A DNA stretch of 64,000 bases, taken from the NCBI GenBank assembly GCA_963845185.1, contig CAWJRG010000009.1, forward strand, positions 352,001 through 416,000. Direction: 5' to 3'. How positions within the stretch are numbered: position 1 is the first letter of the stretch; each line of letters opens with the position of its first letter. The notes under the pieces are model-generated. The model searched no databases and had not been told where the DNA came from. It worked only from the letters and a program-made list of their open reading frames with translations. The stretch is from an uncultured bacterium (GTDB taxonomy: Bacteria > Oederibacteriota > PGYV01 > CAWJRG01). The position numbers were made by a program, and so were the translations under genes. Shown here piece after piece: positions 9,218 through 38,491 of this stretch.

Positions 9218-11012
9218 TTTTTTCTTTTTTGGGGAAACAAACAAACCTATCAACACACAATAGTGTACATTAACCCCTTTGCATCGCCCTTTATTTTTTG
9301 CTAAATAAGGTGTATAATTGAAATAGAAAGGAGGTTAAAAAGAATGGTTAGGCACGCTTTAAATCTTCCACTTATCTATAAGCCGAAAACCTCAAAAAAC
9401 ACCACCCCGTTACAGCATTTAAAAAAGCCACACATATTTATAATATCCCTGCTTTTTATTGTCAGCATCGCATTGCCTGTTTATGTTTACGGCGACGACG
9501 TCTGGGCCGATTTCTTCGGCACATCAAGCACATCAGGCACGTGGGATACAGGCACAAGATATAACCCAAATACAACAATGAAACCGCCTCTTGTATTATT
9601 ATGGCAGAGTTACGACTGGAGAGGAAATACAATTAATGTTAATCCAACATGGAATGGCGCAAGTATAGTAAATGGAGTTGTATATTATGGTGAAGGCTCT
9701 CAAATTGGTATTCCACCCGGCTATTTATGGGCATGGGACAGCGCAACCGGAATTACAAAAACAGGTTTTCCTTTACAAACTTTAAACGGCATAGGCGATA
9801 CGCCTTGTATATTAGGAGAATATATCGGAGCAGGAACACTTCCTATAGAGGGTACTGGTAATAATTATTTATGGGATAGTTTAAGTTTAAATATAATTTC
9901 TGGATTTCCCGTTACAGTAGCTGCAAATACGGAAATTGAAGGTAGCCCGATTATACAAAATAATAGAATATATTTTTGTAATGGTGATACTGTCGGCACT
10001 AATAATTATTATTTATATTGTTATGACACAACAACCGGGAATTTAATATATAAAAATCCATTGCCTGCGTATGGCTCGGATTCAACGCCGTTTATTTATC
10101 AGGGCAAAATAATAATAACAAACTGGAACACAGGGCTTCGTGTATATTGTTTCAATGAATCCGACGGAAGCACGGTGCCGGGATATCCTTTGCAATTATC
10201 CGCAAACGGCGGGACAAACGCCTCGCCGGTCGTATATAACAACCGGATATATATTGATTCCGGAGAGGCGTTTTGGGCAATTGACATAAACACGGCTACA
10301 GTGCCAGCGCCTTTTCCGCTGACAATCACAGGCGGCAATATGTCCTCAACAATCGCGGCAGGGAATGGAAAAGTATATTTTGGGACAGCAGGCGGTTATA
10401 TATATGGAAATTATTTATACGGAATTGACGCGACAACAGGAGCAAATATTGCGGGTTTTCCTGTTACGCTTAACGGCAGCGCCAACATAGACGGCCCGAT
10501 AACTCTTGCAAACGGCGTGGCATATTTTGGAACTGATGAAAATAAAGTTTATGCCGTTGACGCGAATAACGGAACAAATTTATGGAGTTATCAATTGCCT
10601 GCGGGCATTGGTTATAGTGGTATTCAGTACATAATGGCGTCGGTTGCAGAAAATAAACTGGCAGTAACTAGTGTAAGTGGAAACGGGGTTTTTGTATTTT
10701 GTATGCCAAGCCCGACAATAACGCCGACAATAACTGAAACAGCAACACCAACTATGACCGAAACCATAACGCCTACTATGACTTACACAAACACATCTAC
10801 TTTGACCGGTACTTATACAATAACAGCCACGATTACGCAAAGCCAGACAATCTCACAGACAACGACAGAAACAATTACGCCGACAATATCAATGACATCA
10901 ACAATAACTCAAACTCTGATAATATGTTAAGTGTTTATTAGAATGCACGTGGGTTCCAAATCTTTGTTAAAATAGTTATGCGAGTAACAAAATAACAAAG
11001 GAGGAACCACAC

Positions 11013-12047
11013 ATGCATTATGTCGGAGTTGATCTTCACAAAGAACAGTCATGGTTTTACGTTTCAGATCATGAAGGCAAAAGACTTATCAGTAAGAGTA
11101 TATCAAATTCGGAAGAGGAATTGAAACGGATATTTGAAATGATCCCAAAGCCATTCAAGTTGGGAGTAGAGGCCACAAGAAACTGGTACTTTTTTGTTGA
11201 TTTAGCCGAGCTTTATGCGGAAGAAGTCAATCTCGCGAATTCTTTCGAGCTCAAGGCTTTTGCAAAACGAAATAAGAAAACCGACAAGATAGACGCAAAA
11301 CTAATTTGCGATGTTCTGCGAATGGGTTTTCTTCCGAAAGTCAACATACCGCCAAAGCCCATAAGAGAAATACGTGAATTAATAAAATATAGAATGTCCC
11401 TTGTGTATGAGCGAACTTATAATATCAACAGGCTCAAAAATACGATGGGAAAACTAGGGCACGAATGTTGCAGCGATCTTACAAGATATAAACACTTAGA
11501 CAAAGTACAGACGGAGGAATTACCGGAGATATATAAAACTGTTATTAAAGGGCATCAAGAAAGGATTAGATTTTTAACTGAAAAAATTAATAGTATGAAA
11601 TTGTATCTCAAAGAAACGTTTGAAAATGACCCTGATATTAAGAACCTGATTACAATACCAGGCTTGAGTTATCTAAGCGCGGCAATAGTAAAGAGCGAGA
11701 TGATAGATGTAGCAAATTTTGCATCTTTTAACCGCCTTTGTTCCTTTGCCGGACTAGCTCCGCGAGTGAGCCGGAGTGCTAAAAAAGATATACACGGGCC
11801 TTTAAGCAGAAACAGGCGTAAATTACTTCAGTGGATATTGTTGGAAATAGTTCCTCATTATGTTAGAGCCTCAGAGGAAAAGAAAGCAAGATTCGATGAA
11901 ATAGTTAAAAGAAAAAGTTATAATACGGCAAAAGTTGTATTGGCCAGGGATCTTTTAAAGGTAATATATAATGTGCTACGAGATAAAAGAGAATATTATA
12001 GAAATACAATTCGGTCAACGGCGGGTGTCGCGCTCCACGGTGTCTGA
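11013..12047 (+). CDS. IS110-family DEDD recombinase/transposase
   Basis: VGVDLHK, GVEAT, KTDKIDA (DEDD RuvC domain); C-terminal FAGLAPRVSRSAK with the conserved Ser. Confidence 0.96.
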   Translation: MHYVGVDLHKEQSWFYVSDHEGKRLISKSISNSEEELKRIFEMIPKPFKLGVEATRNWYFFVDLAELYAEEVNLANSFELKAFAKRNKKTDKIDAKLICDVLRMGFLPKVNIPPKPIREIRELIKYRMSLVYERTYNINRLKNTMGKLGHECCSDLTRYKHLDKVQTEELPEIYKTVIKGHQERIRFLTEKINSMKLYLKETFENDPDIKNLITIPGLSYLSAAIVKSEMIDVANFASFNRLCSFAGLAPRVSRSAKKDIHGPLSRNRRKLLQWILLEIVPHYVRASEEKKARFDEIVKRKSYNTAKVVLARDLLKVIYNVLRDKREYYRNTIRSTAGVALHGV

Positions 12048-12190
12048 AGTGCGTTTTTTAACGCAGCTTCGTTAGGTCTGATTAGCGGGCATCCGCTGTC
12101 CAAGATTATCAAGCAGGCAGGCAATAGTCCTGCGCTGCCAATGGGTGACTGAAACCGGATTATTCCGGGTTTCTTGAGATAACAACGGAC
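12018..12190 (+). ncRNA. Bridge RNA/seekRNA of the IS1111-type element (target- and donor-binding loops); ends approximate
   Basis: Guides match the empty target (ACGGTGTC 12037-44, TCTGA 12077-81) and the circle junction (ATTATCA 12105-11, AATGGGTGA 12140-48); each pair flanks an inner hairpin. Confidence 0.8.
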
Positions 12191-12680
12191 GGCTGAATGA
12201 AATTACAGAGGATTAACAAGGATTGGAATTCATTAACGTGATACGTGTCTTTATATTTGACAAACACTTAAATGGGTGACACCGTCGCCCACATATACTA
12301 TAACGCCGACAAAGACTGAAGTTCCGGCATCTTTTTATTTTAGATTAATAGCAAACTCTCCAAACCCAGCGAATAACTATACTTATATTATTTATGAGAT
12401 AGGCATAGGAGCAGAAGTAAAAGTAATAATATACACAATAAGCGGTGAAAAAGTAACTACGCTTGAGCAAGAAGGCTCGCAGGGAAGAAACCGCCTTCGA
12501 TGGAACTGCAAAAATTTTGCAGGCCATGACGTAGCAAGCGGAGTATATATTTATAGAATTGAAGCAGTATCAGGCAGCAATAAAGCAAAAGCGTGGAGTA
12601 AACTGGCGGTTTTAAGGTGATAGAACTATCTTAAGTGGTGTTTTATATGGTGAAAACCATTTCTGTTTATTAAAATTAAC

Positions 12681-12709
12681 TTGACCTTTTGAATTTTATG
12701 CTATATAAT
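12681..12709 (+). promoter_or_regulatory. Sigma70-type promoter upstream of GH74 gene
   Basis: TTGACC-N17-TATAAT. Confidence 0.6.
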
Positions 12710-12815: not shown

Positions 12816-15800
12816 GTGAACACAAGAAACCAGGTCAATAAATTCAAAAATACAATAATATTATTATTTTTATTTATGATATTTCTTTCATTAGTCCAAA
12901 GCCTTTCAGCCGCGGCAGCTTATACGTGGACGAATGTAGTTGTTCCAGCCGGAGGATTTGTGGCTGGCGTGGATTACAGCCCGGTGCAGCAAGGGCTTAT
13001 TTATGCCAGAACCGATATGGGCGGTTTTTACCGCTGGGATAACACCAACAACGTCTGGATACCTTTAACCGATATGTATGGCCTAAGCCAGTATACCTAT
13101 CACGGCGGTGAAAGCATAGCACCTGACCCGGTCAATGCTAATAACGTTTATGCGGCGGCTGGAATGTATTTAACCAACGGTAATGGGGCTATACTCAGTT
13201 CAACTAACCAGGGCACTTCCTGGACAATCAATCCAATTGCAGTTCCCATGGGAGGCAATAATGACGGCAGGGAAGCAGGTGAACGCCTTGCTGTCGACCC
13301 GAACCTAAACAGCATACTCTATTTCGCTTCACGTAATAACGGTCTTTGGAAAAGCACCAATTCAGCTGCCACTTGGGCACAGGTCGCAAGTTTCCCGACA
13401 AACGGCGACGCCAATTATGGATTAACCTATGTAATTTTTCTTCCTGGCGGAAATCCTTCCTCCGGCACAGAAACTATTTTTGTCGGCGTGGATTCCATGA
13501 GCGCGGGAAACAGCAGCCTCTACCGTTCCACGAACGCCGGCAGTAGCTGGGCCGTGGTCCCAGGCGGGCCTACCAACATGATAACTCCACATGCTTCATT
13601 AGGAACAGACGGGACTTTGTGGATTGTATATGACAGCGGCGGATACGGTCCCAACAGCATTACCACGGGGCAAATTTGGAAATTAAACACCAGCACACTG
13701 GCTTGGACACAGGTAACTTTACCTGGACCGGCTGCAGGTAACGGGGGATATGGTGGGATATGCGTGGACCATCAAAACGCCCAACACGTAGTTGTCTCAA
13801 CCCTGGATTGGTGGGGTGGCCCAGACCATATCTACAGTACCACCAATGGCGGGACAAGCTGGTCAGTCATAGGGAACGCACAAAACAGCTGGGACGCTGC
13901 GCCTTATGCTGTTTACAACAACAATGGAGCATTATGGACAAGATTTTGCGGTACATATGACGGAGGTACAGGATGGCAGGGGGACATCAAGATAGACCCT
14001 TTTAATTCAAACAATGCTATATATACCACAGGAGGAGGCGTTTGGAGCAGTACCAGTATAGAGGCAGGGACGCAGCCCGCTGGTGTCACCTGGATTTTCA
14101 CCGACTATGGATTGGAGGAAACGGCTGTAACCGATATGATAACTTCAGCACCGGGTGGGGTTTTCTTCAGCGCAGTGGGGGATATAACCGGGATGCGGCA
14201 TCCAAACGTAACACAATCTCCTCCGCTTGGAATGTATTGTGACCCATCCATGAGTACCACAGACGGCATTGATTATGCTGAACTTAACACGAATTTTGTG
14301 GTTCGCGAGGGGCACAGTTTATCAAGCGGCACCACTTCTGCCGGCGGATATTCCACTGATAACGGGCAGACCTGGACAGCTTTTGGCTCAAACCCGAACG
14401 GTTATTCTACAAGCGGCGGAAACGGGCAAATATCAGTAAATGCCAACGGTACTGTGATTCTTTGGGCGCTGCCTTCCAGCACAGCAGTATATTCTTCAAA
14501 CAACGGCACGACCTGGAATAATACATCAGGACTCCCTAACGGAGCTCAAATATGTTCGGACAGGGCAAATAATACTATATTTTATGGTATTTCAGGCACA
14601 ACACTTTATGTCAGTACAAACAGCGGGGCCAGCTTTTCCAGCGCGGGTACATATTCAGGCAGCATATCATGGGCTAACAGGCCAAGGGCTGTTTTTGGCA
14701 TAGCAGGTGAAGTCTGGGTTCCGACAGGCAGTGGCCTCTATCGGTTTACTAATGTAGGTTTGGGAACTGTGGCAACCACGCAGATTGCAAATGTGTCAAG
14801 CGCAGTGGCTGTAGGATTTGGCAAGGCGGCTTCAGGACAAACACATCCAGCGGTTTACCTGGCTGGGACTTTGAGCGGAACCTATGGCTTTTTCCGTTGC
14901 GATGACGGAGTCGGTACCACCTGGACCCAAATAAACGACGCTAATCACCAGTTCGGCGCGGCTGAATTCGCAGCAGGGGACGAAACGGTTTACGGCCGCA
15001 TGTATGTAGGTACCAATGGAAGGGGCATTCTTTATGGCGACATTTCTACTTCAGGTACTTCTACTGTAACACCGGCAATAACTTTAACTTATACAAGTAC
15101 AGCTACGCCAAATCCGACGAGAACTTTTACACCAACATATTCATACACATTGACTTCAACAAGGACGTCAAGCCCGACATATACCAGCACCCAGCAGATG
15201 ACACCGACTTCGACAGGAACAGCAACCGCAACTGTTACGAACACATCTTCATACACTTCAACTTCTACACGAACAGCAACGCAGACCTCAACGCTATCGC
15301 GGACATCTACCTTTACTCCAACAAATACGCCGACATATACAATTACAATAACATCAACAAGCACGCAACAGAATACGGTTACTTTAACAGAAACAAGGAC
15401 AAATACCGGCACTTATACAGCGACAGGGACTAATACCCCGGTACCCACAGGAACAAATACTGTAACACCTTCTTTAACGGCAACAAGAACAAACACGGTA
15501 ACATCTACCTTGACTGCGACTTCTACATCAACATATACAGTAACTCTGACATGGACAAACACCTTACAGAATACTGAAACTTTAACGGCTACAGGGACAA
15601 ATACAACATTGTCAACGGCAACAAGGACAAATACAAGCACATATACTGCGACAGAAACAAATACAGCAACACAGACATCAACAGCAACACGGACAAACAC
15701 TGCAACGACGACATTTACTGCGACAGCTACTCCAACATACACAATTACTCTGACATGGACAAGCACGTCACAAAACACAGTAACTTTAACTTCAACAGGA

Positions 15801-18161
15801 ACAAATACTGCAACACCTTCCTTAACGGCAACACGAACAAATACGGTAACGTCGACTTTGACTGCTACACCTACGCCAACATATACAGTTACATTAACAT
15901 GGACAAACACGTTGCAGAACACGGCAACTTTAACGGCGACACGTACAAATACATCAACGCTGACATTCACTGAGACAATTACGCCAACATATACAGTTAC
16001 ATTAACATGGACAAACACGTTGCAGAACACAGCAACTTTAACGGCGACACGTACAAATACATCAACGCTGACATTCACTGAGACAGTTACACCAACATAT
16101 ACAGTTACATTAACTTGGACAAATACACCACAGAACACGGCAACTTTATCAACGACATCTACTCTTACGGCGACAAGGACAAATACTGCGACGAATACAC
16201 CCACATATTCTGCTACAGCGACATGGACACTTACATTTACAACTACTTTTACGGTGACAGGAACATTCACGGAGACATTAACTTTAACAAGAACGATAAC
16301 ATCAACGCTAACTAATTCACCTGTGGTATCAGAAACACCAACTTATACAGCAACGATTTTTACCCCGACAATTACGCCAACGTCCACAATATCACCGACA
16401 ATTACATTGACAGATACAGCATCGCCTACTGGGACACCAACTTTTACTGCGACAAGGACAAACACAGGCACAAATACGCCGACTTATACAGTAACTTTGA
16501 CATGGACAAACACATCACAGAACACAGTAACATTTACAGCTACGGGAACAAATACGACAAATCCTACAGGTACAAGTACAGGGACACCTACACTTACAGT
16601 TACACGGACAACTACAGTTACAAATACGCCGATAAACACACCTTCATATACAGTAACATTGACTTATACATTGACAGTTACATCAACATTTACCAATTCA
16701 CCGGTGGTATCACCTACGCCGACATTTACTAATATAATATTCACATGGACAATTACGCAGACTTCTACCTCATCGCCAACAATCACATTGACAAATACAC
16801 CATTACCAACAGGTACAGATACGGAGACGGTTACGTTCACTGCGACAAAAACAGACTCCGCAACCACAACCTTCACTGTTACACCTACGCCAACATATAC
16901 AGTTACATTAACATGGACAAGTACGTTGCAGAATACTGCCACTTTAACAGCAACAGGAACAAATATAGCGTCGCCTACAGTTACATATACAAATACCTGC
17001 GATTGTACGGGCACAGAAACAGTGACACCTACATTTACGTTTGTAGCGACAAGGACAAACACCGGAACATCGACAGTGACGAATACGTCCACAAATACAC
17101 CTTCGTTTACAGAAACATTGACATCCACAACAACAATTACATTAACATTAACTAATACTGAGGTTGTGTCAGAAACACCGACTTATACAGCGACAATTTT
17201 TACGCCGACAATTTCACCGACGTCTACCGTAACACCAACAATAACATTGACAGATACACCATCACTAACAGACACGGTAACGTCGACTGCAACAGAAACA
17301 GAGACAAGGACAAATACATTATTACCTACACTTACAAATACGCCAGAGAATACCGCAACAAGCACAGTGACGCCTACTGTAGGAGCAAACCTTGTAGCGG
17401 ATATTACTATTTCACAGGGGAGTGCAATGATAGGGCAGGATATAACCGTAATAATGCAGGTAGTAAATACAGGGACAAATGGCGTGAATAATTTACAGCC
17501 TTCAGCGCTGGCTCAAACAGGCGGTGGAACAGCTATCCTTATAAGCGGGCCCATGCCTGCAAGCACTGCAATAGTCTCAGATTCATCAGGATCATTTACG
17601 TGGGTATATACAGTGACTTCCGTGGCAGGAAATATAGCATTCAGCGGGTCGGCAAGCGGCACAGACGCGATAAACGGCACAATAGTATCAACTGCGATAG
17701 TGACCAGCAATCCATTAATATGCGTTACAGCCACGGCAACAATAGCAAATTCAATTACAATTACCGTAACGCCGACATATACAATAACGCCTAGTATTAC
17801 GACAACAAATCCAGTTGCGACAGCCAGCTTTACACCGACAAACCAGGTTCCTGTTTTCACGGCTACAGCCACATTTGTAATTACTACACAGCCGCCAGGG
17901 CCGCCAAGGATATATCCAAACCCAGTAAAAGACAGGTTTAGATATGTATTTACCCTGACGGAAGATGCAGATATAGAAATAACTATATATACAGCGTCAT
18001 ACAGGCTGATAGCAAAATTTGATCAGTGGCAGAGCGCAGGATTAAATACTATTATAATCGGCGTACAAGGCTTGGCAAACGGTACATATTTTATCGTATA
18101 CAAGCAAAAAGGTCAGACAACAAATACAAAGAGAATTGATAAATTTATCATTTTAAAATAA
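12816..18161 (+). CDS. Secreted GH74 xyloglucanase/endoglucanase + ~780-aa Thr-rich tract + Ig-like domain + T9SS type-A-like C-terminal domain
   Basis: Signal peptide; YARTDMGG, GERLAVDP, GDITG, YVGTNGRGI (GH74); C-terminal IYPNP...IYTASYRLI...LANGTYFI...KFIILK. Confidence 0.9.
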   Translation: MNTRNQVNKFKNTIILLFLFMIFLSLVQSLSAAAAYTWTNVVVPAGGFVAGVDYSPVQQGLIYARTDMGGFYRWDNTNNVWIPLTDMYGLSQYTYHGGESIAPDPVNANNVYAAAGMYLTNGNGAILSSTNQGTSWTINPIAVPMGGNNDGREAGERLAVDPNLNSILYFASRNNGLWKSTNSAATWAQVASFPTNGDANYGLTYVIFLPGGNPSSGTETIFVGVDSMSAGNSSLYRSTNAGSSWAVVPGGPTNMITPHASLGTDGTLWIVYDSGGYGPNSITTGQIWKLNTSTLAWTQVTLPGPAAGNGGYGGICVDHQNAQHVVVSTLDWWGGPDHIYSTTNGGTSWSVIGNAQNSWDAAPYAVYNNNGALWTRFCGTYDGGTGWQGDIKIDPFNSNNAIYTTGGGVWSSTSIEAGTQPAGVTWIFTDYGLEETAVTDMITSAPGGVFFSAVGDITGMRHPNVTQSPPLGMYCDPSMSTTDGIDYAELNTNFVVREGHSLSSGTTSAGGYSTDNGQTWTAFGSNPNGYSTSGGNGQISVNANGTVILWALPSSTAVYSSNNGTTWNNTSGLPNGAQICSDRANNTIFYGISGTTLYVSTNSGASFSSAGTYSGSISWANRPRAVFGIAGEVWVPTGSGLYRFTNVGLGTVATTQIANVSSAVAVGFGKAASGQTHPAVYLAGTLSGTYGFFRCDDGVGTTWTQINDANHQFGAAEFAAGDETVYGRMYVGTNGRGILYGDISTSGTSTVTPAITLTYTSTATPNPTRTFTPTYSYTLTSTRTSSPTYTSTQQMTPTSTGTATATVTNTSSYTSTSTRTATQTSTLSRTSTFTPTNTPTYTITITSTSTQQNTVTLTETRTNTGTYTATGTNTPVPTGTNTVTPSLTATRTNTVTSTLTATSTSTYTVTLTWTNTLQNTETLTATGTNTTLSTATRTNTSTYTATETNTATQTSTATRTNTATTTFTATATPTYTITLTWTSTSQNTVTLTSTGTNTATPSLTATRTNTVTSTLTATPTPTYTVTLTWTNTLQNTATLTATRTNTSTLTFTETITPTYTVTLTWTNTLQNTATLTATRTNTSTLTFTETVTPTYTVTLTWTNTPQNTATLSTTSTLTATRTNTATNTPTYSATATWTLTFTTTFTVTGTFTETLTLTRTITSTLTNSPVVSETPTYTATIFTPTITPTSTISPTITLTDTASPTGTPTFTATRTNTGTNTPTYTVTLTWTNTSQNTVTFTATGTNTTNPTGTSTGTPTLTVTRTTTVTNTPINTPSYTVTLTYTLTVTSTFTNSPVVSPTPTFTNIIFTWTITQTSTSSPTITLTNTPLPTGTDTETVTFTATKTDSATTTFTVTPTPTYTVTLTWTSTLQNTATLTATGTNIASPTVTYTNTCDCTGTETVTPTFTFVATRTNTGTSTVTNTSTNTPSFTETLTSTTTITLTLTNTEVVSETPTYTATIFTPTISPTSTVTPTITLTDTPSLTDTVTSTATETETRTNTLLPTLTNTPENTATSTVTPTVGANLVADITISQGSAMIGQDITVIMQVVNTGTNGVNNLQPSALAQTGGGTAILISGPMPASTAIVSDSSGSFTWVYTVTSVAGNIAFSGSASGTDAINGTIVSTAIVTSNPLICVTATATIANSITITVTPTYTITPSITTTNPVATASFTPTNQVPVFTATATFVITTQPPGPPRIYPNPVKDRFRYVFTLTEDADIEITIYTASYRLIAKFDQWQSAGLNTIIIGVQGLANGTYFIVYKQKGQTTNTKRIDKFIILK
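15873..16150 (+). repeat. 108-bp (36-aa) near-identical tandem repeat inside the GH74 Thr tract
   Basis: TPTYTVTLTWTNTLQNTATLTATRTNTSTLTFTET(I/V) at 15873 and 15981, partial third copy at 16089. Confidence 0.85.
17162..18161 (+). repeat. ~1-kb direct repeat copy 1 (end of Thr tract, Ig domain, C-terminal domain); copy 2 at 22774-23773
   Basis: Colinear, highly similar DNA at constant 5612-bp offset, beginning GGTTGTGTCAGAAACACCGACTTATACAGCG. Confidence 0.9.
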
Positions 18162-26800: not shown

Positions 26801-28478
26801 AACAAGGACATTTACATTAACGGCGACAGGGACAGCAACGCCAACCAGTACGCCTACAGCTTCAAATACCATTACAAGCACTTTGACTGGCACAGCGACG
26901 CAGACGCGGACGCCTTCGGTTACAGATACGGGCACTTTTACTGCAACAACAACATTAACCATCTCTAATACACCAACACATACACCAACTTTTACTTTGA
27001 CAATTACAATTACAAATTCGCCGACCATTACATTAACAGCGACAGGGACAAGTACGCCAACCAGTACTCCCACAGCTTCAAATTCAATAACAGTCACTTT
27101 TACGGGTACAGCGACTCATACTCAGACACCTACACTTACAGATACGCCGACTTTTACTTTAACAGTAACGTTAACACTTTCTTATACTCCAACACATACC
27201 CCTACTTTCACTTTGACCGTCACAATAACAAATTCACCGGTTGTATCGCCAACACCCACATTCACAAATATAGTGTTTACGTGGACAATAACACCGACAT
27301 ATACTATTTCCCCAACAATAACACTTACGATGACGTCGAGCAATACACTAACAAATACAGCAACACCGACAAGCACATTTACAGGGACTGTGACACAGAC
27401 ACCTTCATTTACATATTCGGCAACTTTCACTTTGACGGCTACATTAACTCTGTCTCCAACGCAGACATATAGCTCAACTTCTACTTTGACAATAACACTA
27501 ACGCTTTCTTCCACGAAAACAGAAACGACGACTTGCACTTTGACAGCCACAATTACAGATTCGCCAGTAATATCACCGACACCTACATTTACTTCTATTA
27601 TTTTTACATGGACAATAACACCGACATTAACAATTTCCCCAACGATAACACTGACTCAGGCAAATACATTTACAAATACTCCAACATCCTCTATCACAGT
27701 TACAAGCACGGAGACACAGACACCTTCGTATACAGATACGGAGACTCTTACTCTGACATTAACGTCAACGCTTTCTTCGACGGCTACAGAAACGTCGACT
27801 TGCACTTTGACAGTCACAATTACAAATTCTCCTGTGGTAACGCCAACGCCGACATTCACAAATATTGTGTTTACGTGGACAATAACGCCGACATATACTA
27901 TTTCCGCAACAATAACGCTGACGCCAAGCAATACACTTACAAATACACCAACGATTTCATTGACACCAAGCGCTACAGGAACTAATTCGAGCACAGAGAC
28001 GCAAACAGTTTCCTTTACAGCAACCGCAACAGTTACATTTACAAATTCAATAACGCCTTCAGAAACATTAACACTTTCTCAAACACTTACAGCTTCAACC
28101 ACATTAACTCCAACGATAAACCCCATATTAACAATAACAGCGACAGCCACTGTAGAGCAGGAAAAACACAAAAAGCCAAAACCATATCCCAACCCTTTGA
28201 ATCCAAAAATAATACCGGAATTATATATTGCATATAGTTTTGATGATACAGATATTGACAGTGTAAAGTTCAGAATGTATACATCGGCTTACAGATTAAT
28301 AAGGGAAATAAAATTTGAAAAGTCAGAAGCCATGGCAATGGCACAACAGGGAATAATAACGTGCTCGACGGACGGGTTAAAAGATTTAAGCAGCGGTTCA
28401 TATTTTTATATTATTTTAACAGAAAAAGCAGGAAAAGAACAAAGTTCAAAAATCGATACTATTATTATTTTAAAATGA
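23877..28478 (+). CDS. Secreted GH9 endoglucanase (N-terminal Ig domain) + ~850-aa Thr-rich tract + T9SS type-A-like C-terminal domain
   Basis: IRLNSLGF (CelD_N), [24 protein letters not shown]-terminal PYPNP...[10 protein letters not shown]...LSSGSYFY...TIIILK. Confidence 0.9.
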
Positions 28479-30592: not shown

Positions 30593-32191
30593 ATGAAAAA
30601 AATATATTTTTGTATAATTAATATTGTAATAATTTTATCATCTTCAATTTTTGTATCGGCGGTAGATATTACTATCGATACATCGAAGGGAAGAACGAAG
30701 ATAAGTCAATATATTTATGGGACCAATCAGCCGATTGAAGGCGGGGAAAATTTTACAGCATGGCGGCTTGGCGGAAACAGGATGACGGGTTATAATTGGG
30801 AAAACAACGCGTCAAATGCCGGCAATGACTGGCAGCATTCAAGCGATAATTACATGATTGATTCGCTTGCAATTTCCACAAACCAGTCAAACGAGCCGGC
30901 AAGGACAATCACTTATTTCCATGAGAAATCCCTTTCAATGAATGCGTATTCGCTTGTAACACTCCAAATGGCAGGTTATGTTGCAAAAGATAAAAATGGT
31001 ACGGTGACGGAGCAGGAAACAGCTCCTTCGCCAAGATGGGCGCAGGTCGTGTTCTCAAAAGGCAAGCCTTTTTCCATGAACCCGGATACAGAAGATAATT
31101 TTGTTTATATGGATGAGGAAGTAAATTATTTAGTTAATAAATTCGGCAATGCATCCACGCCGAAAGGCATTAAGGGCTATGCGCTCGACAACGAACCTGA
31201 TATCTGGATGGGTACTCATCCGAGAATACATCCCAAAAAGCAGACGTGTGAGGAAATTATTTCAAAATCCGTCGCACTGGCAAAAGCAGTGAAAAACGTG
31301 GATCCTTACGCCGAAATATTCGGGCCTGCATCTTATGGGTTTAACGGGTTTAAAACTTTTCAGGATGCTCCTGACTGGTACAGTAAATACCAGGATAAAT
31401 ATGACTGGTTTTTATCCTATTATCTTGACATGATGAGAAAGGAATCAAAAAAAGCAGATAAAAGGCTGCTTGATGTTCTGGATGTTCACTGGTATCCTGA
31501 AGCACAGGGAGAAGGCAAAAGAATTGTAACCAACGGAGTTTTTCCCGGGATAAATGCCGCTGCAAGGGTACAGGCGCCAAGATCTTTATGGGACCCAACA
31601 TATACGGAAACAAGTTGGATATGCCAAACAGGCGGTTGCCCAATACAATTGATTCCACACCTGCAAAAATCCATAAAAAAATATTATCCGGGTACCAAAA
31701 TAGGCATCACCGAATATGATTACGGAGGCGGTGAACATATATCGGGCGGCATAGCCATGGCTGATGTACTAGGGATATTCGGCAAATACAGCATCTATTT
31801 TGCCACTTACTGGAATTCAGAAAGCGGCACATATACATCTGCTGCCTTTAAACTTTACAGGAACTATGACGGTAATTACGGGACATTCGGCGACACCAAG
31901 GTAAAATCAGAAACCGATGATGTAGCCGATATGCCTGTATATGCTTCGATAAATGGCAAGGATGACTCATCACTCCATGTTATCGTTATCAACAGGGATA
32001 TGAGCAATACACAGACAGCACATTTTACGATAACATCACCGCAAGAATATAAGTCCGGAGTAGCATGGGGTTTCGATAGAATAGACGCAAAAATAAAAAT
32101 TAAAGCAAATATTGCTGAGATTAAAAAGAATTCATTTAGTTTGGAAATACCACCGCTTAGCGCATATCATATAATATTAAATTCAAAATAA
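30593..32191 (+). CDS. GH44 endoglucanase/xyloglucanase, secreted, no Thr tract or C-terminal sorting domain
   Basis: RLGGNRMTGYNWENNASNAG, LDNEPDIW, LDVHWYPE, ITEYDYGG. Confidence 0.9.
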   Translation: MKKIYFCIINIVIILSSSIFVSAVDITIDTSKGRTKISQYIYGTNQPIEGGENFTAWRLGGNRMTGYNWENNASNAGNDWQHSSDNYMIDSLAISTNQSNEPARTITYFHEKSLSMNAYSLVTLQMAGYVAKDKNGTVTEQETAPSPRWAQVVFSKGKPFSMNPDTEDNFVYMDEEVNYLVNKFGNASTPKGIKGYALDNEPDIWMGTHPRIHPKKQTCEEIISKSVALAKAVKNVDPYAEIFGPASYGFNGFKTFQDAPDWYSKYQDKYDWFLSYYLDMMRKESKKADKRLLDVLDVHWYPEAQGEGKRIVTNGVFPGINAAARVQAPRSLWDPTYTETSWICQTGGCPIQLIPHLQKSIKKYYPGTKIGITEYDYGGGEHISGGIAMADVLGIFGKYSIYFATYWNSESGTYTSAAFKLYRNYDGNYGTFGDTKVKSETDDVADMPVYASINGKDDSSLHVIVINRDMSNTQTAHFTITSPQEYKSGVAWGFDRIDAKIKIKANIAEIKKNSFSLEIPPLSAYHIILNSK

Positions 32192-32841
32192 GTTATCAGC
32201 ATTAACATTAATTGGAAACAGTTATTATTGGCAATGGCACATCTGGTTTTTCAGGATATTGCAAATTTATAATAGCAGATTGAATTTATTTTTTATTGAA
32301 AAATGTTGCAATTTATCAGCAAATCCTTTATTATAATGTTCGGCTTTAAAGTTAATTAAAATATAAGGGAGAATAAGTAATGAACTTACAGGATATTTTT
32401 GCCATGCTTGCTGGTGCAGCAGTTGTATTTTTGGGAATTTTCATAGCAATAGTTATAAAGAATATTAAAGTATTGAAAAAACCAAAAATATCTGCAACAA
32501 CTGCTGATGATAAAACAGCTCTAAAGAATAAAAATATAGTAATAACCAATTTAAACTTAAAAGAAAACAATTCGTGGGATAATCCGCAAATACAACTATG
32601 GCTGTCAAATCCGCTAGGGTACGGCAGGAGGGATGCTGATGAAAAACTGCCTTTGGAAGGCAAAGTAATTAATCCGCCTAAAGAAGGCTTCGTGAGAATA
32701 TTTATAATGCTGGCGCCCAAAAATTTTTGGAAACAGGGTGATTTTGTACTGAACAATAGGGGTGAATGGAAAGCAATGATTTATCTTGCCTCCGGCCCTG
32801 ATGAGAAATATAAAAAAACAATAAGAATAGAGTTATATGAA

Positions 32842-34519
32842 CCCGCATCCGTTATATCAAATTCATAAAAGAGAATGAAAAAGGGCTAAAAGTATTATAT
32901 AATAAGGTAAATAAAAGTTTTTGAGCTGTAAAAAGGAGGACACCTAATGGGTGAAGCGAAAAAACACTGTTTTAAATTCAGTTTTACTGACAAAGTAAAA
33001 GCATATTTTAAGGGTTCTGAAATTACGTCGGACGGTGGATTAATTGCTATTCGAGAACTTGATGAAAAAATGGGTCTGACTATTTTGGCTGAAAAACACC
33101 TGACTGATAAAAGAAACGGAAGAAATATTCAACATGACTTAACCGAACTTTTACGACAATCCATATATAGCCGTTTGGCGGGCTACGAAGATGTAAATGA
33201 TGCCAAGCAACTAAGGAACGACCCTTCTTTAAGGGCAGTACTTGGTGACCGGGCATTACAGAGAAATGGCAGCAGTGAGGCCACTGTTGGAAAATTCGAA
33301 ACAGAAATACTCACCGAAGGAAATAACCTGGAAAAACTCGATGAGATGTTAATGAATTGGATAGGCAAAGCGGATAAGATTAGGGGCGTTAAAAAAATAG
33401 TGCTTGATTTGGATTCGTCCGAAAGCCCGGTATATGGTGAACAGGAAGGAAGCGCTTATAACGGTTATTTCGGATCAAAATGTTATCACCCCCTTTTCTG
33501 TTTCAATCAATTTGGAGATTGTCTTAAGGCAAAATTAAGACCGGGTAATGTCCATAGCGCCGATGCGTGGTTGGAGTTTATCGAACCCGTTTTAAGAAAT
33601 TATATCAGCAAAGGGTTTAAAGTCACCTTCCGTGCAGACGCGGCTTTTGGGATACCGGAATTATATGAACTCTGCGAAGAACTTGGCGTAGAATACGTCA
33701 TTAGGCTAAGAGAGAATAATTGCCTTGCAGAAGAGATATCCGGCTTACTGAAAAAGCCCGTCAAAAAAACCGACAAAAAGTTCATCACGCTGTATAAAGA
33801 TTTTATGTATCGAGCCAAGTCGTGGAATAAAAAAAGAAGAGTGATTGCAAAAATAGAATATCACCATGGCGAATTGTTTCCGCGGGTGGGATTTATTATA
33901 ACAAGTTTAAACTGGCTCGATAAAAAAGCAGTAAAATTTTATAACAAACGTGGTACTTGCGAACAATGGATCAAGGAGGGAAAACACACGCTGAATTGGA
34001 CGAAGCTATCCTGCAAGAGATTTAAGGAGAATGAAGCGAGATTGAAATTATTTATTTTGGCATATAATTCAGGAAATTTCTTACGGACCCTGGTTTTACC
34101 AAAGAAGATAAAACACTGGTCGTTAAAAACGATACAGTTAAAGTTGATAAAAATAGGTGGCAGATTAATAAAACATGCCAGGTATTACTGGTTGTTATTG
34201 GCCGAGGTTTCTATTACAGCAAAGATATTTTCCGGTTTAATGCATAATATTCGGAAATTACGCCCGGCAAGCGGCTGATAGAATTGGCTTGGTAACATGT
34301 AACATATTTATAGAGGAGCAAACAAAAATGATTGGACAGGCTTGTCTAAAAATATGGAATTGGGAAAGATTAGACCGAAAAATCGGGTAATCGGTATAGT
34401 TTGGAGGAAAATATTTCATTGAACCAACAGAATAAAAACATTTCTCTTGATTTTGACATCATTTGGAGTAAAATTAATGATGAAAATAGGCTGGTTGATT
34501 TTGATATGACGGATACCAG
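32842..34519 (+). mobile_element. IS1380-family insertion sequence, 1678 bp, 5-bp TSD ATGAA
   Basis: Imperfect terminal IRs CCCGCATCCGTTATATCAAATTCA and TGATTTTGATATGACGGATACCAG; ATGAA at 32837-41 and 34520-24. Confidence 0.9.
32947..34278 (+). CDS. IS1380-family DDE transposase
   Basis: ITSDGG, GYEDVND, LDLDSS, YHPLF, LRPGN, RADAAF, YNKRGTCEQWIKEGK. Confidence 0.95.
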   Translation: MGEAKKHCFKFSFTDKVKAYFKGSEITSDGGLIAIRELDEKMGLTILAEKHLTDKRNGRNIQHDLTELLRQSIYSRLAGYEDVNDAKQLRNDPSLRAVLGDRALQRNGSSEATVGKFETEILTEGNNLEKLDEMLMNWIGKADKIRGVKKIVLDLDSSESPVYGEQEGSAYNGYFGSKCYHPLFCFNQFGDCLKAKLRPGNVHSADAWLEFIEPVLRNYISKGFKVTFRADAAFGIPELYELCEELGVEYVIRLRENNCLAEEISGLLKKPVKKTDKKFITLYKDFMYRAKSWNKKRRVIAKIEYHHGELFPRVGFIITSLNWLDKKAVKFYNKRGTCEQWIKEGKHTLNWTKLSCKRFKENEARLKLFILAYNSGNFLRTLVLPKKIKHWSLKTIQLKLIKIGGRLIKHARYYWLLLAEVSITAKIFSGLMHNIRKLRPASG

Positions 34520-34627: not shown

Positions 34628-34656
34628 TTGACAGGATTTTGTTATTGTGTTAAATT
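34628..34656 (+). promoter_or_regulatory. Sigma70-type promoter for the PorV-like/flagellar gene run
   Basis: TTGACA-N17-TAAATT with extended TG. Confidence 0.55.
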
Positions 34657-34715: not shown

Positions 34716-36809
34716 GTGCGCAAAAAGAGGATATTTCTGTTTATTTTAACGGGTATTTTTACTTTTGGCATGGGAATATCGGTTTTTTCGGATGATTTAA
34801 GTGATACACAGCAAATATTGTGGGAAAAGACAAAGGATCCTTTCTTTGATAAATACGGGAGCTTTGGCGCTGGTGCACGCGCAATTGGTATGGGAGAAGC
34901 ATTTTCCGCAATAGCTGATGATGCATCAGCTATTTATTACAATCCAGCAGGACTTGCTCAGATGGACCATAATGAACTATTTTGGACAGGGGGATCATAT
35001 TACAGTAGTCAGCCATATACTGATTTTGCATCCTTAGTTGCGGCATTAGGTTCCCAGTATATTGGATTGTCTTATTACAAACCATATCATCCCATTGGTG
35101 ATTACCCGGCAACAGTTCAGATACCATCAGGCGTGGGCCCGGGTGTAGGAAATTTATTTAATGACCAGCCTATAAGTATCGGTCCTGGTACATATAAGTG
35201 GTATGGCGGACTTACTGCTGCCCAGCAACAACTTCTTGGAGGTATGTATCGTAAATATATTAACCCTCCTTTTCAGGCAGACCAGGCAGCTTTGACTTAT
35301 GCCACGCCACTTACAGGCGACAAGAGTTTTATGTTCGGATTAAACGTAAAATATCAGTTTACCGATTCAGCGTACCAAAATGTACTCGGAAATAATTTTG
35401 CAGCATGGGCATGGGGACTCGACCTTGGCTTTCTGTATAAATTAAGAATGATCGAACATTTAAAAGATTTTAATATTTCCATAGTTTTGCATGATGTGTC
35501 AGGGAGCATGAAAGACTATACAACTGGTATTGAAAAGAGCCTTTATTTTTCCTCAACTATAGGTTTGTCTTTAAGAACAACCGACCTGATAGAAAAGGAA
35601 ATAACAAGTTTTTCATTTGATTTTAATTCTGTAAATGACCCGGGCGCATTTGATAATGAAAAGTACAGGATGAATTTTGGATTTGAGCAGTGGTTTCTCG
35701 AAGGGCATTTTGCGGTCCGCGGCGGTTTGGTTGATTTCCTTTATCCAGGTACGTGGAGGTTTAGCTTGGGTTTGTCAGGGAGATATTTGTTAGGAATAGA
35801 TTACGCTTATGTAAAAGCAATACCTTTTTCAGGAAAAGCGGAAAACGAAAACGACAGCCAATGGATTTCGATTTACTGGATGTGGGGCAAGACTAAAAAA
35901 GAACTTCCGACTCCTGAAGTTTTTGCGGCTGTTGAACCAATTTCTTTCGCGCCTAAAAACGGAGAAACGGTGATATTCAAGCTTAACGCGATATCTTCGG
36001 CAGGAATAGACAGATGGGCGTTAAATATACTTGATAAAAACAATAATCTTGTAAAATCTTACGCCGATATTAGCATGCCTCCGTCGCAGATAGTTTGGAA
36101 CGGCACGGATAACAAATACCAGTTGCTTCCTGATGGCGAATATACCTTTGTCTTTGAGGCGACAGATAAGCTTGGCAGCACTTCATCAACGCCTGTGCAG
36201 ACAGTAAAAATTTATACGCCTGTTCTCGAGGCAGTCAATAAATCGGCTTTAAACCAATTAAAGCAACTTTTAAACCAGTTAAAAGACAGGGAAGAGAAAG
36301 AAGATAAAGCTGTTGCAGCTGTTGCCTCTACTGAGCTTACAAAAGTAAAAAAAGCAAAAGAAAAACCTACACCTGCGCCAGTACCTCAGGTTGCATTAGT
36401 TCCGCAGGCTGTTACGCCGCCGGCAAACGTAACCGGCACAGCAGGCACGCAGGCGCAGATAAATATTGTAGGATTCCCGAATATAGAATCCGGCGCGATA
36501 AGATCGGCATATATTTCCACTGCACCGGACGGAACAAAGACGTTTAATATTGATTATATGACTGATAATACGATGCCAAAATATATATTGGGTGAGATGG
36601 CTCTTATGGCAAGGACAACAGCCGAGAGTCTCGGTTACTCAATTGACCAGATAGGTATAAATGCTTTGTACGGGCCGAATAATACAATGGCAATGGTTGT
36701 GCCTACAGCTCAGGCGCAAAATTATGCAAAAGGCGTGATTACAGCCGAACAGATGCTGCGAGGGGCTCAGATAACATTAAATGGAGAAGCAATTCTTCCA
36801 AATTTTTAG
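34716..36809 (+). CDS. PorV/UPF0164-like outer-membrane barrel protein fused to an FlgD-Ig-like domain and an unknown C-terminal domain
   Basis: GARAIGMGEAFSAIADDASAIYYNPAGL signature; amphipathic strands (WGLDLGFLY, IDYAY); IVWNGTD...LPDGEYTF; GTG start after GGAGG, in frame with listed ORF 34647. Confidence 0.75.
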   Translation: MRKKRIFLFILTGIFTFGMGISVFSDDLSDTQQILWEKTKDPFFDKYGSFGAGARAIGMGEAFSAIADDASAIYYNPAGLAQMDHNELFWTGGSYYSSQPYTDFASLVAALGSQYIGLSYYKPYHPIGDYPATVQIPSGVGPGVGNLFNDQPISIGPGTYKWYGGLTAAQQQLLGGMYRKYINPPFQADQAALTYATPLTGDKSFMFGLNVKYQFTDSAYQNVLGNNFAAWAWGLDLGFLYKLRMIEHLKDFNISIVLHDVSGSMKDYTTGIEKSLYFSSTIGLSLRTTDLIEKEITSFSFDFNSVNDPGAFDNEKYRMNFGFEQWFLEGHFAVRGGLVDFLYPGTWRFSLGLSGRYLLGIDYAYVKAIPFSGKAENENDSQWISIYWMWGKTKKELPTPEVFAAVEPISFAPKNGETVIFKLNAISSAGIDRWALNILDKNNNLVKSYADISMPPSQIVWNGTDNKYQLLPDGEYTFVFEATDKLGSTSSTPVQTVKIYTPVLEAVNKSALNQLKQLLNQLKDREEKEDKAVAAVASTELTKVKKAKEKPTPAPVPQVALVPQAVTPPANVTGTAGTQAQINIVGFPNIESGAIRSAYISTAPDGTKTFNIDYMTDNTMPKYILGEMALMARTTAESLGYSIDQIGINALYGPNNTMAMVVPTAQAQNYAKGVITAEQMLRGAQITLNGEAILPNF

Positions 36810-36823
36810 GAGAGTGGTAAACA

Positions 36824-38491
36824 ATGAGGAAAATTTTCTTCCTAACAGTAATTTATAGTTTATTTTCACTTTCCCTATTCGGCGCTTTTGATAAAGAAGG
36901 CGTCCTTGGTGTAGGGGGCAGGGCAACCGGTATGGGCGATGCATTCGGAGCTGTTGCCGATGACGGAAGCGCTTTTTACTGGAATACAGCAGGACTAACA
37001 CAGCTTGACAGGAGCGAGGTTAATTTATTTCTTGGGCCTCTTTTAAACGGCAAGGAATATTATACGCTTATTTCATATGGAGCGCCTTTTGTGCAGGATA
37101 CAGCGTGGCAATTGACGGCAATGTCACTTATACACAATGATCCTAGTTCTACCAAAGAATTTCAAATAATAGGCAGCTTCGCGTCGGCTTTAAATTTGGA
37201 AAGAACTTTTTCAGTCGGAGTAAATTTAAAATACCTGGCCTATAATTCAAACGCGTCATATACAGATCCGGTTACTAATGTAACTCTGCAGGGAATAGCA
37301 AATGGTATCGGGCTTGATGTAGGATTACTTTATCAAATACCAATGCCAGCATTTGGAAAGAAAATAAATATTGGGTTATTTATACAAGATATAGATACTG
37401 TGCTGCACTGGCAGGGCGGTACCGAAGATGAAAGAATACCCACATTATTTAAATTAGCAGGCGCGTATTATTTAGACGATAACCTACTGATAGCAGGTGA
37501 TATGGACTTTTTTTCTGATATGAATATAAGCGGAATACCATTGACAAACCCAATAACAAACTCGCAAACAGGACAGACCATAACTGCGCTGCAGCCGGAT
37601 GAAACCAGGGGACATATAGGGGTTGAGGGTTGGTTTTTTAAGAAACACCTTGGTTTACGCGGAGGATATACCAGTTTTGCGACAATGCCGGGAAGCTTTA
37701 CAGGTGGAGTATCATATAAAGAAAACAATTGGGAAATTGATTATGCATATGTAGGTCAGGCAGAGTACCTTGGCGATAGCCACAGGTTCTCTGTTATTTT
37801 AAGATTTGGGCCTGAAAAAGAGAAATTAAGGGCAATAAGCGTTGTAAGGCCTCCGACAGAACTAAAAGCATATCCCGCTAATAACGCTGTTAACCTGACA
37901 TGGGATGTAAATGAGGACCCGAATGTTACGGGTTATGCCGTGTATATGAGTAAATCTCCGGGGTCACGTTATATTCCGATTGCCAAAAGGATAAGAGAAA
38001 ATTATGTCACAGTTGACGGACTACAAGATGGCACGAGATATTATTTTGTGGTAACATCCATAAACAACACATACCCTTCGGTGGAGAGCGCATATTCAAA
38101 TGAAGCTTCAACGGTACCTGCACCTGTTGTGCCGGGAACCCCGGAAGTTTTCCCGATACAGCAGAGAAAAGCAGTTGATAGAAACGGCTTTATTGATGTT
38201 GCGTGGGGGAAGGTACCACCAGCCAATATTGCGGGTTATAATATATATATAACAGAGACATCTGGCAAGGGGTATGCTAAAGCTAACGCGTCTCCAATAA
38301 AAGATACTCATTTTACAATCAAAAATCTTGAAGTGGGGAAAAAATATTTCTATGTTTTAACAGGAGTTACAAATGATGTTCCACCGATTGAGTCAAAATT
38401 TTCAAAAGAATCGAGCGATATAGCTAAACCAGCAAGTGCTTTAGAAACACAACAGACACAGCAGTCTCAAGGTAAGCCTCAAACGAAGTAG
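36824..38491 (+). CDS. PorV/UPF0164-like outer-membrane barrel protein with two fibronectin type III domains
   Basis: GGRATGMGDAFGAVADDGSAFYWNTAGL; IDYAY...LGDSHRFSV barrel end; FN3 motifs LTWD..GYAVY..GLQDGTRYYFVVT and NLEVGKKYFYVLT. Confidence 0.78.
   Translation: MRKIFFLTVIYSLFSLSLFGAFDKEGVLGVGGRATGMGDAFGAVADDGSAFYWNTAGLTQLDRSEVNLFLGPLLNGKEYYTLISYGAPFVQDTAWQLTAMSLIHNDPSSTKEFQIIGSFASALNLERTFSVGVNLKYLAYNSNASYTDPVTNVTLQGIANGIGLDVGLLYQIPMPAFGKKINIGLFIQDIDTVLHWQGGTEDERIPTLFKLAGAYYLDDNLLIAGDMDFFSDMNISGIPLTNPITNSQTGQTITALQPDETRGHIGVEGWFFKKHLGLRGGYTSFATMPGSFTGGVSYKENNWEIDYAYVGQAEYLGDSHRFSVILRFGPEKEKLRAISVVRPPTELKAYPANNAVNLTWDVNEDPNVTGYAVYMSKSPGSRYIPIAKRIRENYVTVDGLQDGTRYYFVVTSINNTYPSVESAYSNEASTVPAPVVPGTPEVFPIQQRKAVDRNGFIDVAWGKVPPANIAGYNIYITETSGKGYAKANASPIKDTHFTIKNLEVGKKYFYVLTGVTNDVPPIESKFSKESSDIAKPASALETQQTQQSQGKPQTK

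Follow-up and report, generated by a model that had tools for sequence, protein, structure and literature searches.

The question raised by this locus is whether a set of secreted glycoside hydrolases (GHs) and two barrel proteins that are encoded close together form a single export system. The locus lies in a 64,000-nucleotide stretch of DNA (the window) from an uncultured bacterium (assembly GCA_963845185.1, contig CAWJRG010000009.1, positions 352,001 to 416,000). A sequence-only reading of the window had proposed that four secreted proteins, a beta-propeller and enzymes of families GH74, GH30 and GH9, end in the C-terminal domain (CTD) found on type A cargo in a type IX secretion system (T9SS), and that two downstream barrels of the PorV type are functionally tied to them. 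The computational analysis presented here takes these two parts asunder. It is judged rather probable that the hydrolases are cargo of a reduced T9SS-like system and that the barrel pair belongs to the flagellar cluster. At the level of the genome the T9SS-like export system is supported, while the link drawn between the barrels and the neighboring hydrolases is probably wrong. The initial observation is partly confirmed and its overall interpretation partly supported.

Stalked hydrolases and their C-terminal domains

The three enzymes are a GH74 xyloglucanase-type protein of 1781 residues (12816..18161), a GH30 (XynC-like) protein of 1647 residues (18830..23773) and a GH9 cellulase of 1533 residues (23877..28478). 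Their genes are located on the plus strand, as are all plausible genes of the window. They share a common build: a hydrophobic N-terminus (recognized by eye; a putative signal peptide), a functional head, a threonine (Thr) stalk and a CTD. The GH74 head matches solved GH74 xyloglucanases among the PDB sequences at E 4e-149, and no Pfam family matches it over the cut-off. The GH30 protein also contains a CIA30/CBM11-like module, and the GH9 protein a CelD_N domain in addition to its GH9 domain (259 bits). The stalks of GH74, GH30 and GH9 (the latter Thr/Ser-rich) measure 812, 793 and 877 residues, with Thr contents of 43%, 42% and 39%, respectively. The Thr residues alternate, as 78-84% of them are followed by another Thr at position +2. 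In GH74 and GH30 an extra beta domain of about 110 residues without Pfam family is found between stalk and CTD. The final 1001 nt of the two genes (17161-18161 and 22774-23773), which cover the end of the stalk, this extra domain and the CTD, are 92.7% identical. This looks like a recent duplication or gene conversion between neighboring genes.

The C-termini were compared to profiles with cut-offs of 27 bits (PF18962) and 23 bits (TIGR04183). The CTD of GH74 scores 29.8 bits with PF18962 in the full protein and 37.4 bits when the C-terminus is searched alone, and for GH30 these values are 33.6 and 40.3 bits; both are over the cut-off. The orphaned end of the propeller protein (see below) is matched by PF18962 (28.0 bits), FlgD_ig (27.2 bits) and TIGR04183 (37.5 bits). 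For these three, the proposed assignment as type A CTDs is borne out by hidden Markov models (HMMs). The divergent CTD of GH9 is connected to the others by a single link, a BLASTP match to the GH30 CTD (E 5e-11, 28% identity). Its predicted structure contains 7 strands (predicted local distance difference test, pLDDT, 85.5), and the ten best, though weak, Foldseek matches of this model include PorU (6za2), PorZ (5m11) and the mirolase CTD (8qb1) next to generic fn3 folds. Of the motif that had been described for these tails, the PNP, G.Y and K...(K/R) columns are conserved in an alignment of 22 CTDs. Judged by their sequences, the reading of the window tails as T9SS type A-like CTDs is supported.

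The fourth protein of the proposed set is found in pieces. The 5' part of the beta-propeller gene (9344..10930, plus strand) encodes a hydrophobic leader (by eye) and a BamB-like propeller (PQQ_2, 52 bits), and it ends in a Thr-rich tract (residues 435-528 of this open reading frame, ORF). It is followed by an insertion sequence (IS) of the IS110 family (10915..12275, right end approximate, plus strand), whose transposase ORF (11013-12047) matches DEDD_Tnp_IS110 and Transposase_20. Beyond it, an orphaned ORF of 114 residues (12276..12620, plus strand) encodes the last part of a Thr/Pro linker, followed by a type A-like CTD. The repeat family of the linker DNA runs up to 10927 and starts again from 12280. 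Because these repeats continue on both sides of the IS110 element and the CTD is located in a separate ORF, the propeller is considered to be one disrupted gene. A second copy (155 nt) of the left IS110 end is present elsewhere on contig C9. The shared architecture hence describes the three hydrolases as they stand, and the propeller gene as a gene split by IS110.

Gene order around the barrel pair

The two barrel genes are likewise on the plus strand: the 720-aa barrel gene (34716..36809) and the 555-aa barrel gene (36824..38491). The likely start of the former is the GTG at 34716 after a GGAGG (the listed ORF starts at 34647). Its product consists of a PorV/PorQ-like barrel, a FlgD-Ig-like domain, a charged linker and a C-terminal domain of 130 residues; the last 131 residues have no Pfam match. 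The 555-aa protein combines a PorV/PorQ-family barrel (residues 29-328) with two C-terminal fn3 domains. Only 32 nt separate the end of its gene from flgF, and no terminator-like site was seen on the plus strand at 38491-38524. The flgF, flgG, flgA, flgH (L ring) and flgI (P ring) genes, assigned by Pfam matches, occupy 38524..43036 on the plus strand, and flgI is followed by a rod-binding protein gene, flgN and flgK. With flgH and flgI present, the claim of a flagellum with P and L rings is sustained.

Among 37 paralogues in the genome, the window barrels are one conserved pair. Each of the 13 genomes of the order contains one clear full-length orthologue of the 555-aa barrel, with 67-75% identity. 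The 720-aa orthologue is located directly upstream in all 12 loci with an upstream flank, and flgF followed by flgG directly downstream in all 11 loci with a downstream flank. Elsewhere in the phylum, flgF adjoins the barrel orthologue in 19 of 23 further loci; the other four comprise two loci at contig ends, a weaker second match and one true exception. Across a sample of 41 genomes of the phylum, the barrel orthologue (E<=1e-50, 35-74% identity) occurs in 26 and FlgI in 28: both are present in 25, only the barrel in 1, only FlgI in 3, and 12 have neither. In G001, the genome with only the barrel, flgF and flgG stand beside it. At least one joint loss of barrel and FlgI took place in a family that is positive apart from this case (genome G008, family f13). 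The genomic and phyletic tie of the window pair is to flgF-flgG and FlgI, and not to CTD cargo.

The hydrolases do not share in this conservation. For three relatives, no homologue of GH74, GH30, GH9, GH44 or the propeller is found within 17 kb upstream of the barrel pair. In genome G006 the pair is preceded by, in this order, an SprA homologue, an fn3 protein, MutL, MiaA, a major facilitator superfamily (MFS) transporter and a DUF4416 gene that abuts the pair. In the genome studied here some 190 kb separate the end of the DUF4416 gene (C9:196206) from the start of the first barrel (near C9:386716). An IS4-type element of 1680 bp (32840..34519, plus strand; DDE transposase 32947-34278, DDE_Tnp_1_4 427 bits) abuts the barrel pair, at the junction of the hydrolase region with the barrel-flagellar cluster. 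It has five copies in the genome with at least 99.9% identity (C9 three times, C10 and C8; blastn) and is apparently active. Because the three relatives lack GH genes upstream, DUF4416 is about 190 kb away and the IS4 element abuts the pair, the closeness of hydrolases and barrels is regarded as specific to this genome. The pair probably belongs with the flagellar genes, and for the two barrels a role linked to the flagellum is rated as likelier than one in shuttling hydrolases.

As proteins, both window barrels are real members of the PorV/PorQ family, although they fall well short of the named subfamilies. The N-terminal motif of the GxRAxGMGxAF type that the sequence-only reading had quoted is present in both ORFs. 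The cut-offs are 90 bits for the PorV_fam profile NF033709, 250 for PorV (NF033710) and 220 for PorQ (NF033711). The 555-aa barrel passes the family cut-off with 96.2 bits over residues 29-328, and the 720-aa barrel (61.8 bits; FlgD_ig 29.4 bits) remains below it, so that family membership by profile stands for the former and not for the latter. Neither approaches its equivalog cut-off (46.9 bits with PorV for the 555-aa and 31.4 bits with PorQ for the 720-aa barrel). Searched with phmmer against the PDB sequences, the 720-aa barrel finds nothing and the 555-aa barrel fn3 matches only. A model of the 555-aa barrel built from an alignment of 36 paralogues (pLDDT 86, predicted template modeling score, pTM, 0.82) has as its best PDB fold matches 8gl6_F (query TM-score, TMq, 0.70) and 6h3i_F (0.68), which are T9SS translocon entries. 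Chain F of these entries is presumably PorV; the search output names the entries only. TbuX/FadL/TodX follow with TMq 0.53-0.63. A grouping with FadL lipid transporters, which had been named as an outcome that would speak against the PorV assignment, is thus not seen for the modeled barrel, as the T9SS chains come ahead of FadL by a modest margin.

The remaining features of the window fit around these genes. Upstream of 9344, genes for fatty-acid synthesis, RNase III, acyl-CoA dehydrogenase/ETF and a methyltransferase are found. A PAS-PAS-HD-GYP protein (28676..30526), a possible cyclic di-GMP phosphodiesterase, is encoded between the GH9 and GH44 genes; in the relative G096 an HD-GYP region with 40% identity is located about 8 kb upstream of the barrel pair. 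The GH44 enzyme (30593..32191, plus strand; GH44 247.6 bits) has a putative signal peptide and neither stalk nor CTD. It was considered whether its stalk and CTD had been lost to the IS4 insertion. No trace of them is found in the spacer or in the following 162-aa ORF (32380..32868; one N-terminal hydrophobic helix, no family match, last 29 nt inside the IS4 element), and GH44 has no Thr-rich segment, so this idea was rejected. A scan of the window for promoters and terminators gave counts not above those of shuffled sequences (47 vs 36 +/- 6 and 10 vs 8.4 +/- 3.2, respectively). The named window features themselves are not attributable to chance.

Type IX-like components in the whole genome

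The search was extended to the complete genome (3.50 Mb, 11 contigs, 99.4% complete). TIGR04183 has 88 matches, 84 of them over the cut-off. Together with two ORFs found through the C-terminal part of the PorU profile and with GH9, 91 CTD ORFs were compiled, and 90 of these end no more than 21 residues from the match, meaning that the CTD is located at the extreme C-terminus. Long Thr-rich tracts (>=30% Thr) are not restricted to the window: tracts of at least 100, 300 and 600 residues occur in 60, 30 and 22 of the 91 ORFs, respectively.

The SprA profile TIGR04189 matches one frame of about 2145-2148 residues in four pieces (E 9e-20 to 8e-8). In the protein collection this protein has 47 relatives, which grade into proteins with Pfam SprA_N and annotated Bacteroidetes SprA. 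In hhalign, a comparison with six SprA-type sequences (all with Pfam SprA_N, four annotated as SprA) yields a probability of 100%, E 1.9e-63, over 1058 columns. A phmmer search of the PDB sequences found nothing. By these alignments the protein is a divergent but genuine SprA homologue, and it is present in 40 of the 41 phylum genomes. The PorV/PorQ profile gives 40 matches that correspond to 37 barrel genes, 29 of them over the cut-off, and PorV-family barrels occur in 61 of 61 genomes, flagellated or not. Two peptidases of family C25, to which PorU and the gingipains belong, are encoded, one of which (1657 aa) carries a CBM3 and a CTD. The PorU profile NF033707 (cut-off 420 bits) matched CTD regions and one piece of 30.7 bits, and no protein of the genome reaches the PorU, PorV or PorQ equivalog cut-offs.

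The motor and ring components present a different picture. GldL, GldM and GldN (TIGR03513, TIGR03517 and TIGR03523) have no match in the genome at E<=0.001, a provisional absence as the profiles had no positive control, and the same limit applies to PorP/SprF (PF11751), which is without match as well. The three Gld profiles are also nil in 10 genomes with SprA-like loci and in 25 genomes of the phylum of a metagenome-assembled genome (MAG) labeled Ignavibacteria. The GldK profile TIGR03525 matches nothing but the FGE-sulfatase domain of five lipoproteins (318-510 aa), which are encoded within arrays of lipoprotein genes and are not followed by L/M/N-like genes. The genome also has four MotA/ExbB loci and three FliG_C matches; not one of these is located beside the SprA-like gene or the window barrels. 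Because there is a true SprA homologue and no GldL/M/N match (again lacking a positive control), the system is not taken to be a canonical, complete T9SS. The genome-wide search that the sequence-only reading had called for delivered the SprA homologue and the 37 barrels and, by these profiles, no motor.

A dedicated motor is also missing from the neighborhood of the SprA homologue (G000:C9:174000-193900), which is made up of lipopolysaccharide (LPS) and housekeeping genes. Upstream are LacI, an O-antigen-ligase-type Wzy_C protein, a GT9 heptosyltransferase, a conserved protein of 219 residues without Pfam match and a methyl-accepting chemotaxis protein (MCP); downstream are MutL and an fn3 protein of 1136 residues whose end is weakly CTD-like. 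About 15 relatives retain this arrangement. In the SprA-like loci of FCPU426 and Elusimicrobia the neighbors are a divergent LptF/LptG pair, a ComF-like gene and sometimes a PMT_2 glycosyltransferase. These neighbors hint at a tie to LPS or glycan attachment. Many Elusimicrobia loci (e.g. L079:3-3068) also encode, next to LptFG and the SprA-like protein, a barrel of the TraF_2/DUF5723 type, followed by an M6-like peptidase with a FlgD_ig/CTD-like end. Elsewhere on contig C9, a PorV-like barrel gene and a MotA/ExbB-family gene, each split into two frames (C9:136588-137750 and C9:141658-142003, respectively), are located 4 kb apart, and a second FliG_C-like gene contains an in-frame stop (C9:713313-713972). 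The split barrel, the split MotA/ExbB gene and the interrupted FliG_C-like gene may be remnants of a barrel and motor module.

Many barrels of this genome stand directly behind a CTD gene. For 16 of the 37 barrel genes, a TIGR04183 match on the same strand ends upstream at a distance of under 400 nt. When ORFs are compared and the added CTDs are included, 17 of the 37 are located at most 266 nt downstream of a CTD gene, and an 18th pair overlaps (C5:792541-794460 with C5:794334-801743). With CTD genes making up about 3% of an estimated 3000 or so genes, about one such pair would be expected by chance. The paired cargoes are mostly not hydrolases: they contain Big_1, FG-GAP, CarboxypepD_reg, CBM9, an S8 subtilase or a PQQ propeller. 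CHU_C (type B-like) tails are carried by two tandem giants of 2894 and 1724 residues (C1:124865-140959), and each giant is followed by a tailless barrel of 335 residues; by analogy, these pairs are reminiscent of the SprB/SprF type. The window barrels and hydrolases are not part of any cargo-barrel cassette.

The barrels frequently carry tails of their own. Among 34 scanned barrels, a TPR tail occurs in 10, FlgD_ig with OmpA in 5, FlgD_ig alone in 2 and fn3 in 1; among the 18 cargo-paired barrels, TPR occurs in 8, Ig with OmpA in 2 and fn3 in 1. TPR and OmpA tails are compatible with a periplasmic C-terminus. The five proteins that combine a barrel with FlgD-Ig-like and OmpA domains are encoded at C5:773336-775657, C6:114190-116163, C9:786483-788417, C10:689147-691120 and C10:781060-783159. 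As leads from a protein atlas, a cluster with this combination is commonest in Goldiibacteriota, and clusters of PorV/PorQ with FlgD_ig are spread across several candidate phyla.

Competing explanations, related systems and implications

If the separation of hydrolases and barrel pair is right, GH74, GH30, GH9 and the IS110-broken propeller would be cargo of a reduced T9SS-like sorting system. The enzymes would cross the inner membrane by Sec. At the outer membrane, the CTD would be read by PorV-like barrels, acting as receptors or anchors, and by the SprA-like pore. The enzyme would then be either displayed at the cell surface or released, the head being borne on the distal end of a Thr stalk that is probably O-glycosylated. 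The barrel pair of the window would act in or beside the flagellar basal body, and its closeness to the hydrolases would be the result of rearrangement.

Several results count against this separation. On the side of the cargo, the last 100 residues of GH9 have no Pfam match even at E<=1, and all Foldseek matches of its CTD model are weaker than E 1e-3, with T9SS CTDs mixed with generic fn3 domains. On the side of the pore and motor, the SprA homologue does not reach the 200-bit cut-off of TIGR04189 and lacks a Pfam SprA_N match, and the GldL/M/N and PorP profiles gave no match in any control genome, the 14 control genomes being without T9SS. On the side of the flagellum, the barrel orthologue of G004 is not beside flgF, and the FlgI-positive genomes G012, G019 and G024 have no orthologue at E<=1e-50; the co-occurrence counts also treat related genomes as independent and so overstate the evidence. 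Finally, the 555-aa barrel was modeled together with the GH30 CTD, as had been suggested. The complex scores 0.48 (runs 0.54, 0.43 and 0.48), compared to 0.05 for the best of 3 controls; at least 66% of the contacts are common to the runs, and the pLDDT of the partner is at least 73. In the calibration of this score, the mark was reached by 116 of 157 solved complexes and by 2 of 215 mismatched pairs, but only 18 of the 157 solved complexes reached it with a score of 0.60 or lower. The modeled pass gives weak support for a contact between this barrel and a CTD, and it may reflect no more than likeness to the solved CTD-bound translocon 8gl6.

The contact model fits the rival explanation that the window barrels are, after all, PorV-type shuttles for the CTDs of the neighboring hydrolases and that the flagellar gene order has no functional meaning. 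The membership of the 555-aa protein in PorV_fam, its best folds (chain F of the T9SS translocon entries) and the high conservation of the pair in the order, as would be expected of a general shuttle, all agree with it. It is nevertheless thought unlikely: 12 of the 13 FlgI-negative genomes lack an orthologue while retaining the SprA-like gene and numerous PorV-family barrels, no GH genes are found near the pair in the three relatives, and the cargo-barrel pairs of the genome have the barrel within 266 nt downstream of the cargo, which is not so for the window pair. In another arrangement there would be no central machine: each CTD protein would have a PorV/PorQ-like barrel of its own for anchoring or translocation, and the window hydrolases, which have no barrel gene next to them, would borrow one or be released. 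Type B CTD cargo with PorP/SprF-like proteins, and Slam with its lipoproteins, offer analogues. The 18 barrels directly downstream of a CTD gene, the tails that 11 of them carry (8 TPR, 2 Ig with OmpA, 1 fn3) and the two pairs with CHU_C CTDs would be explained well. However, the majority of the 91 CTD genes, the four of the window among them, lack a barrel gene next to them; the paired cargoes are for the most part adhesin-like proteins or proteases rather than hydrolases; and that 40 of 41 genomes retain the SprA homologue speaks for a common pore. This arrangement is held to be quite improbable.

It might also be that a complete canonical T9SS is present, with PorK/L/M/N, PorU and PorP too divergent for profiles trained on Bacteroidota. 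Divergence of this kind is real in the SprA homologue, which itself falls below its profile cut-off, and the GldL/M/N and PorP profiles went without positive control. Still, the SprA and PorV profiles stem from the same training organisms and reach E-values of 1e-20 to 1e-54, where GldL/M/N are nil at E<=0.001. The five FGE-sulfatase lipoproteins are not followed by L/M/N-like genes, and none of the four MotA/ExbB loci adjoins the SprA-like gene or the window barrels. A hidden canonical system accordingly appears very improbable. The separation of hydrolase cargo and flagellum-linked barrels is retained as the preferred reading.

The lineage of the host bears on what such a system would mean. 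The SprA-like family has 111 relatives in genome contigs, and the labels of the best 80 of these are Goldbacteria/Goldiibacteriota, FCPU426, many Elusimicrobia/Endomicrobiales, Coatesbacteria and a few that are apparently mislabeled. The labels of these relatives support a host of the Goldbacteria/FCPU426 type, and not of the Bacteroidota; the likeness to Ca. Goldbacteria noted earlier is thereby upheld. In NCBI, Goldiibacteriota and FCPU426 are candidate phyla incertae sedis. According to the main text of Doud et al. 2019 (PMC7031533), the FCPU426 16S cluster corresponds to Goldbacteria, and flagellar genes are found in Goldbacteria and not in its sister clades. The Ca. Goldbacteria member 'Cellulosimonas argentiregionis' described there resembles the present host in that it is cellulolytic, flagellated and, by the labels of related MAGs, from the same candidate phylum. 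That main text contains 'type IX' in a reference title only, and the terms T9SS, Por secretion, signal peptide, outer membrane and dockerin are absent from it. No type IX secretion system in Goldbacteria or Elusimicrobia is described in the portions of PMC7031533 and PMC12204202 that were covered. The introduction of PMC11285876 states that T9SS genes are absent outside the phyla of the Fibrobacteres-Chlorobi-Bacteroidetes (FCB) group, and lists FCB phyla that may have a T9SS. The individual parts have probably been labeled already by annotation pipelines that use the same HMMs; a description of the system was not found.

Compared to the Bacteroidota T9SS of Porphyromonas gingivalis and Flavobacterium johnsoniae, the system shares the type A CTD as the very last domain of cargo exported by Sec, a giant outer-membrane protein of the SprA/Sov type, FadL-like barrels of the PorV/PorQ family and a CTD-bearing C25 peptidase. 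It differs in that no match for GldK/L/M/N (PorK/L/M/N) or PorP is counted (with profiles lacking a positive control), in the number of barrels (37 instead of a few, many with TPR, Ig with OmpA or fn3 tails) and in its host, a flagellated member of Goldbacteria/FCPU426. In F. johnsoniae, type B CTD cargo is accompanied by a PorP/SprF partner. A cargo gene followed by its own barrel gene is shared by 18 of the 37 barrels here, but the partners belong to the PorV/PorQ family, most of the paired CTDs are type A-like and the window genes are not involved.

Cytophaga hutchinsonii and Fibrobacter succinogenes have T9SS-dependent cellulases and a full T9SS core. Their cellulases resemble those of the window in being free of dockerins, in carrying T9SS CTDs and in acting at the cell surface. 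Stalks of about 800-880 residues with around 40% Thr are not known from the T9SS cellulases of Cytophaga or Fibrobacter. F. succinogenes is listed in PMC11285876 among the species with a studied T9SS, and work on Cytophaga is cited in PMC7031533.

For the barrel pair, a search of the literature for PorV together with flagellar flgG found nothing related, and the PorV_fam profile had no match in flagellated control genomes. The H-ring proteins FlgO, FlgP and FlgT of Vibrio provide a parallel, as the genes of these envelope proteins also stand inside basal-body clusters and in some flagellated lineages only. The window barrels are PorV/FadL-like, and the comparison is one of gene setting; no likeness to the H-ring proteins in sequence or fold was seen, although no search aimed at it was made. 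A bolder, doubtful extension is that the pair is a previously undescribed outer-membrane component of the flagellum with its Ig and fn3 tails directed toward the P and L rings, and that a motor-less or differently powered SprA-PorV-CTD module is shared with Elusimicrobiota. If this were true, a barrel that recognizes CTD or FlgD-Ig domains would be an old envelope module of both the flagellum and type IX-like secretion.

The T9SS is treated as a system of the Bacteroidota or FCB group with the PorLM motor and the PorKN ring as its core. The present case combines the cargo signal with the SprA pore and an extensive PorV-like family, without detectable motor or ring, in a cellulolytic candidate phylum, and the relatives of SprA extend into Elusimicrobiota. 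If the absence of motor and ring holds, the question becomes which T9SS parts are ancestral and suffice by themselves, and how export is powered in the absence of PorLM. The CTD route is put forward as a proposal for how Goldbacteria deploy their cellulases, a point on which the main text of PMC7031533 is silent. The flagellum-linked barrel pair, in turn, is a concrete candidate for a new accessory of the basal body.

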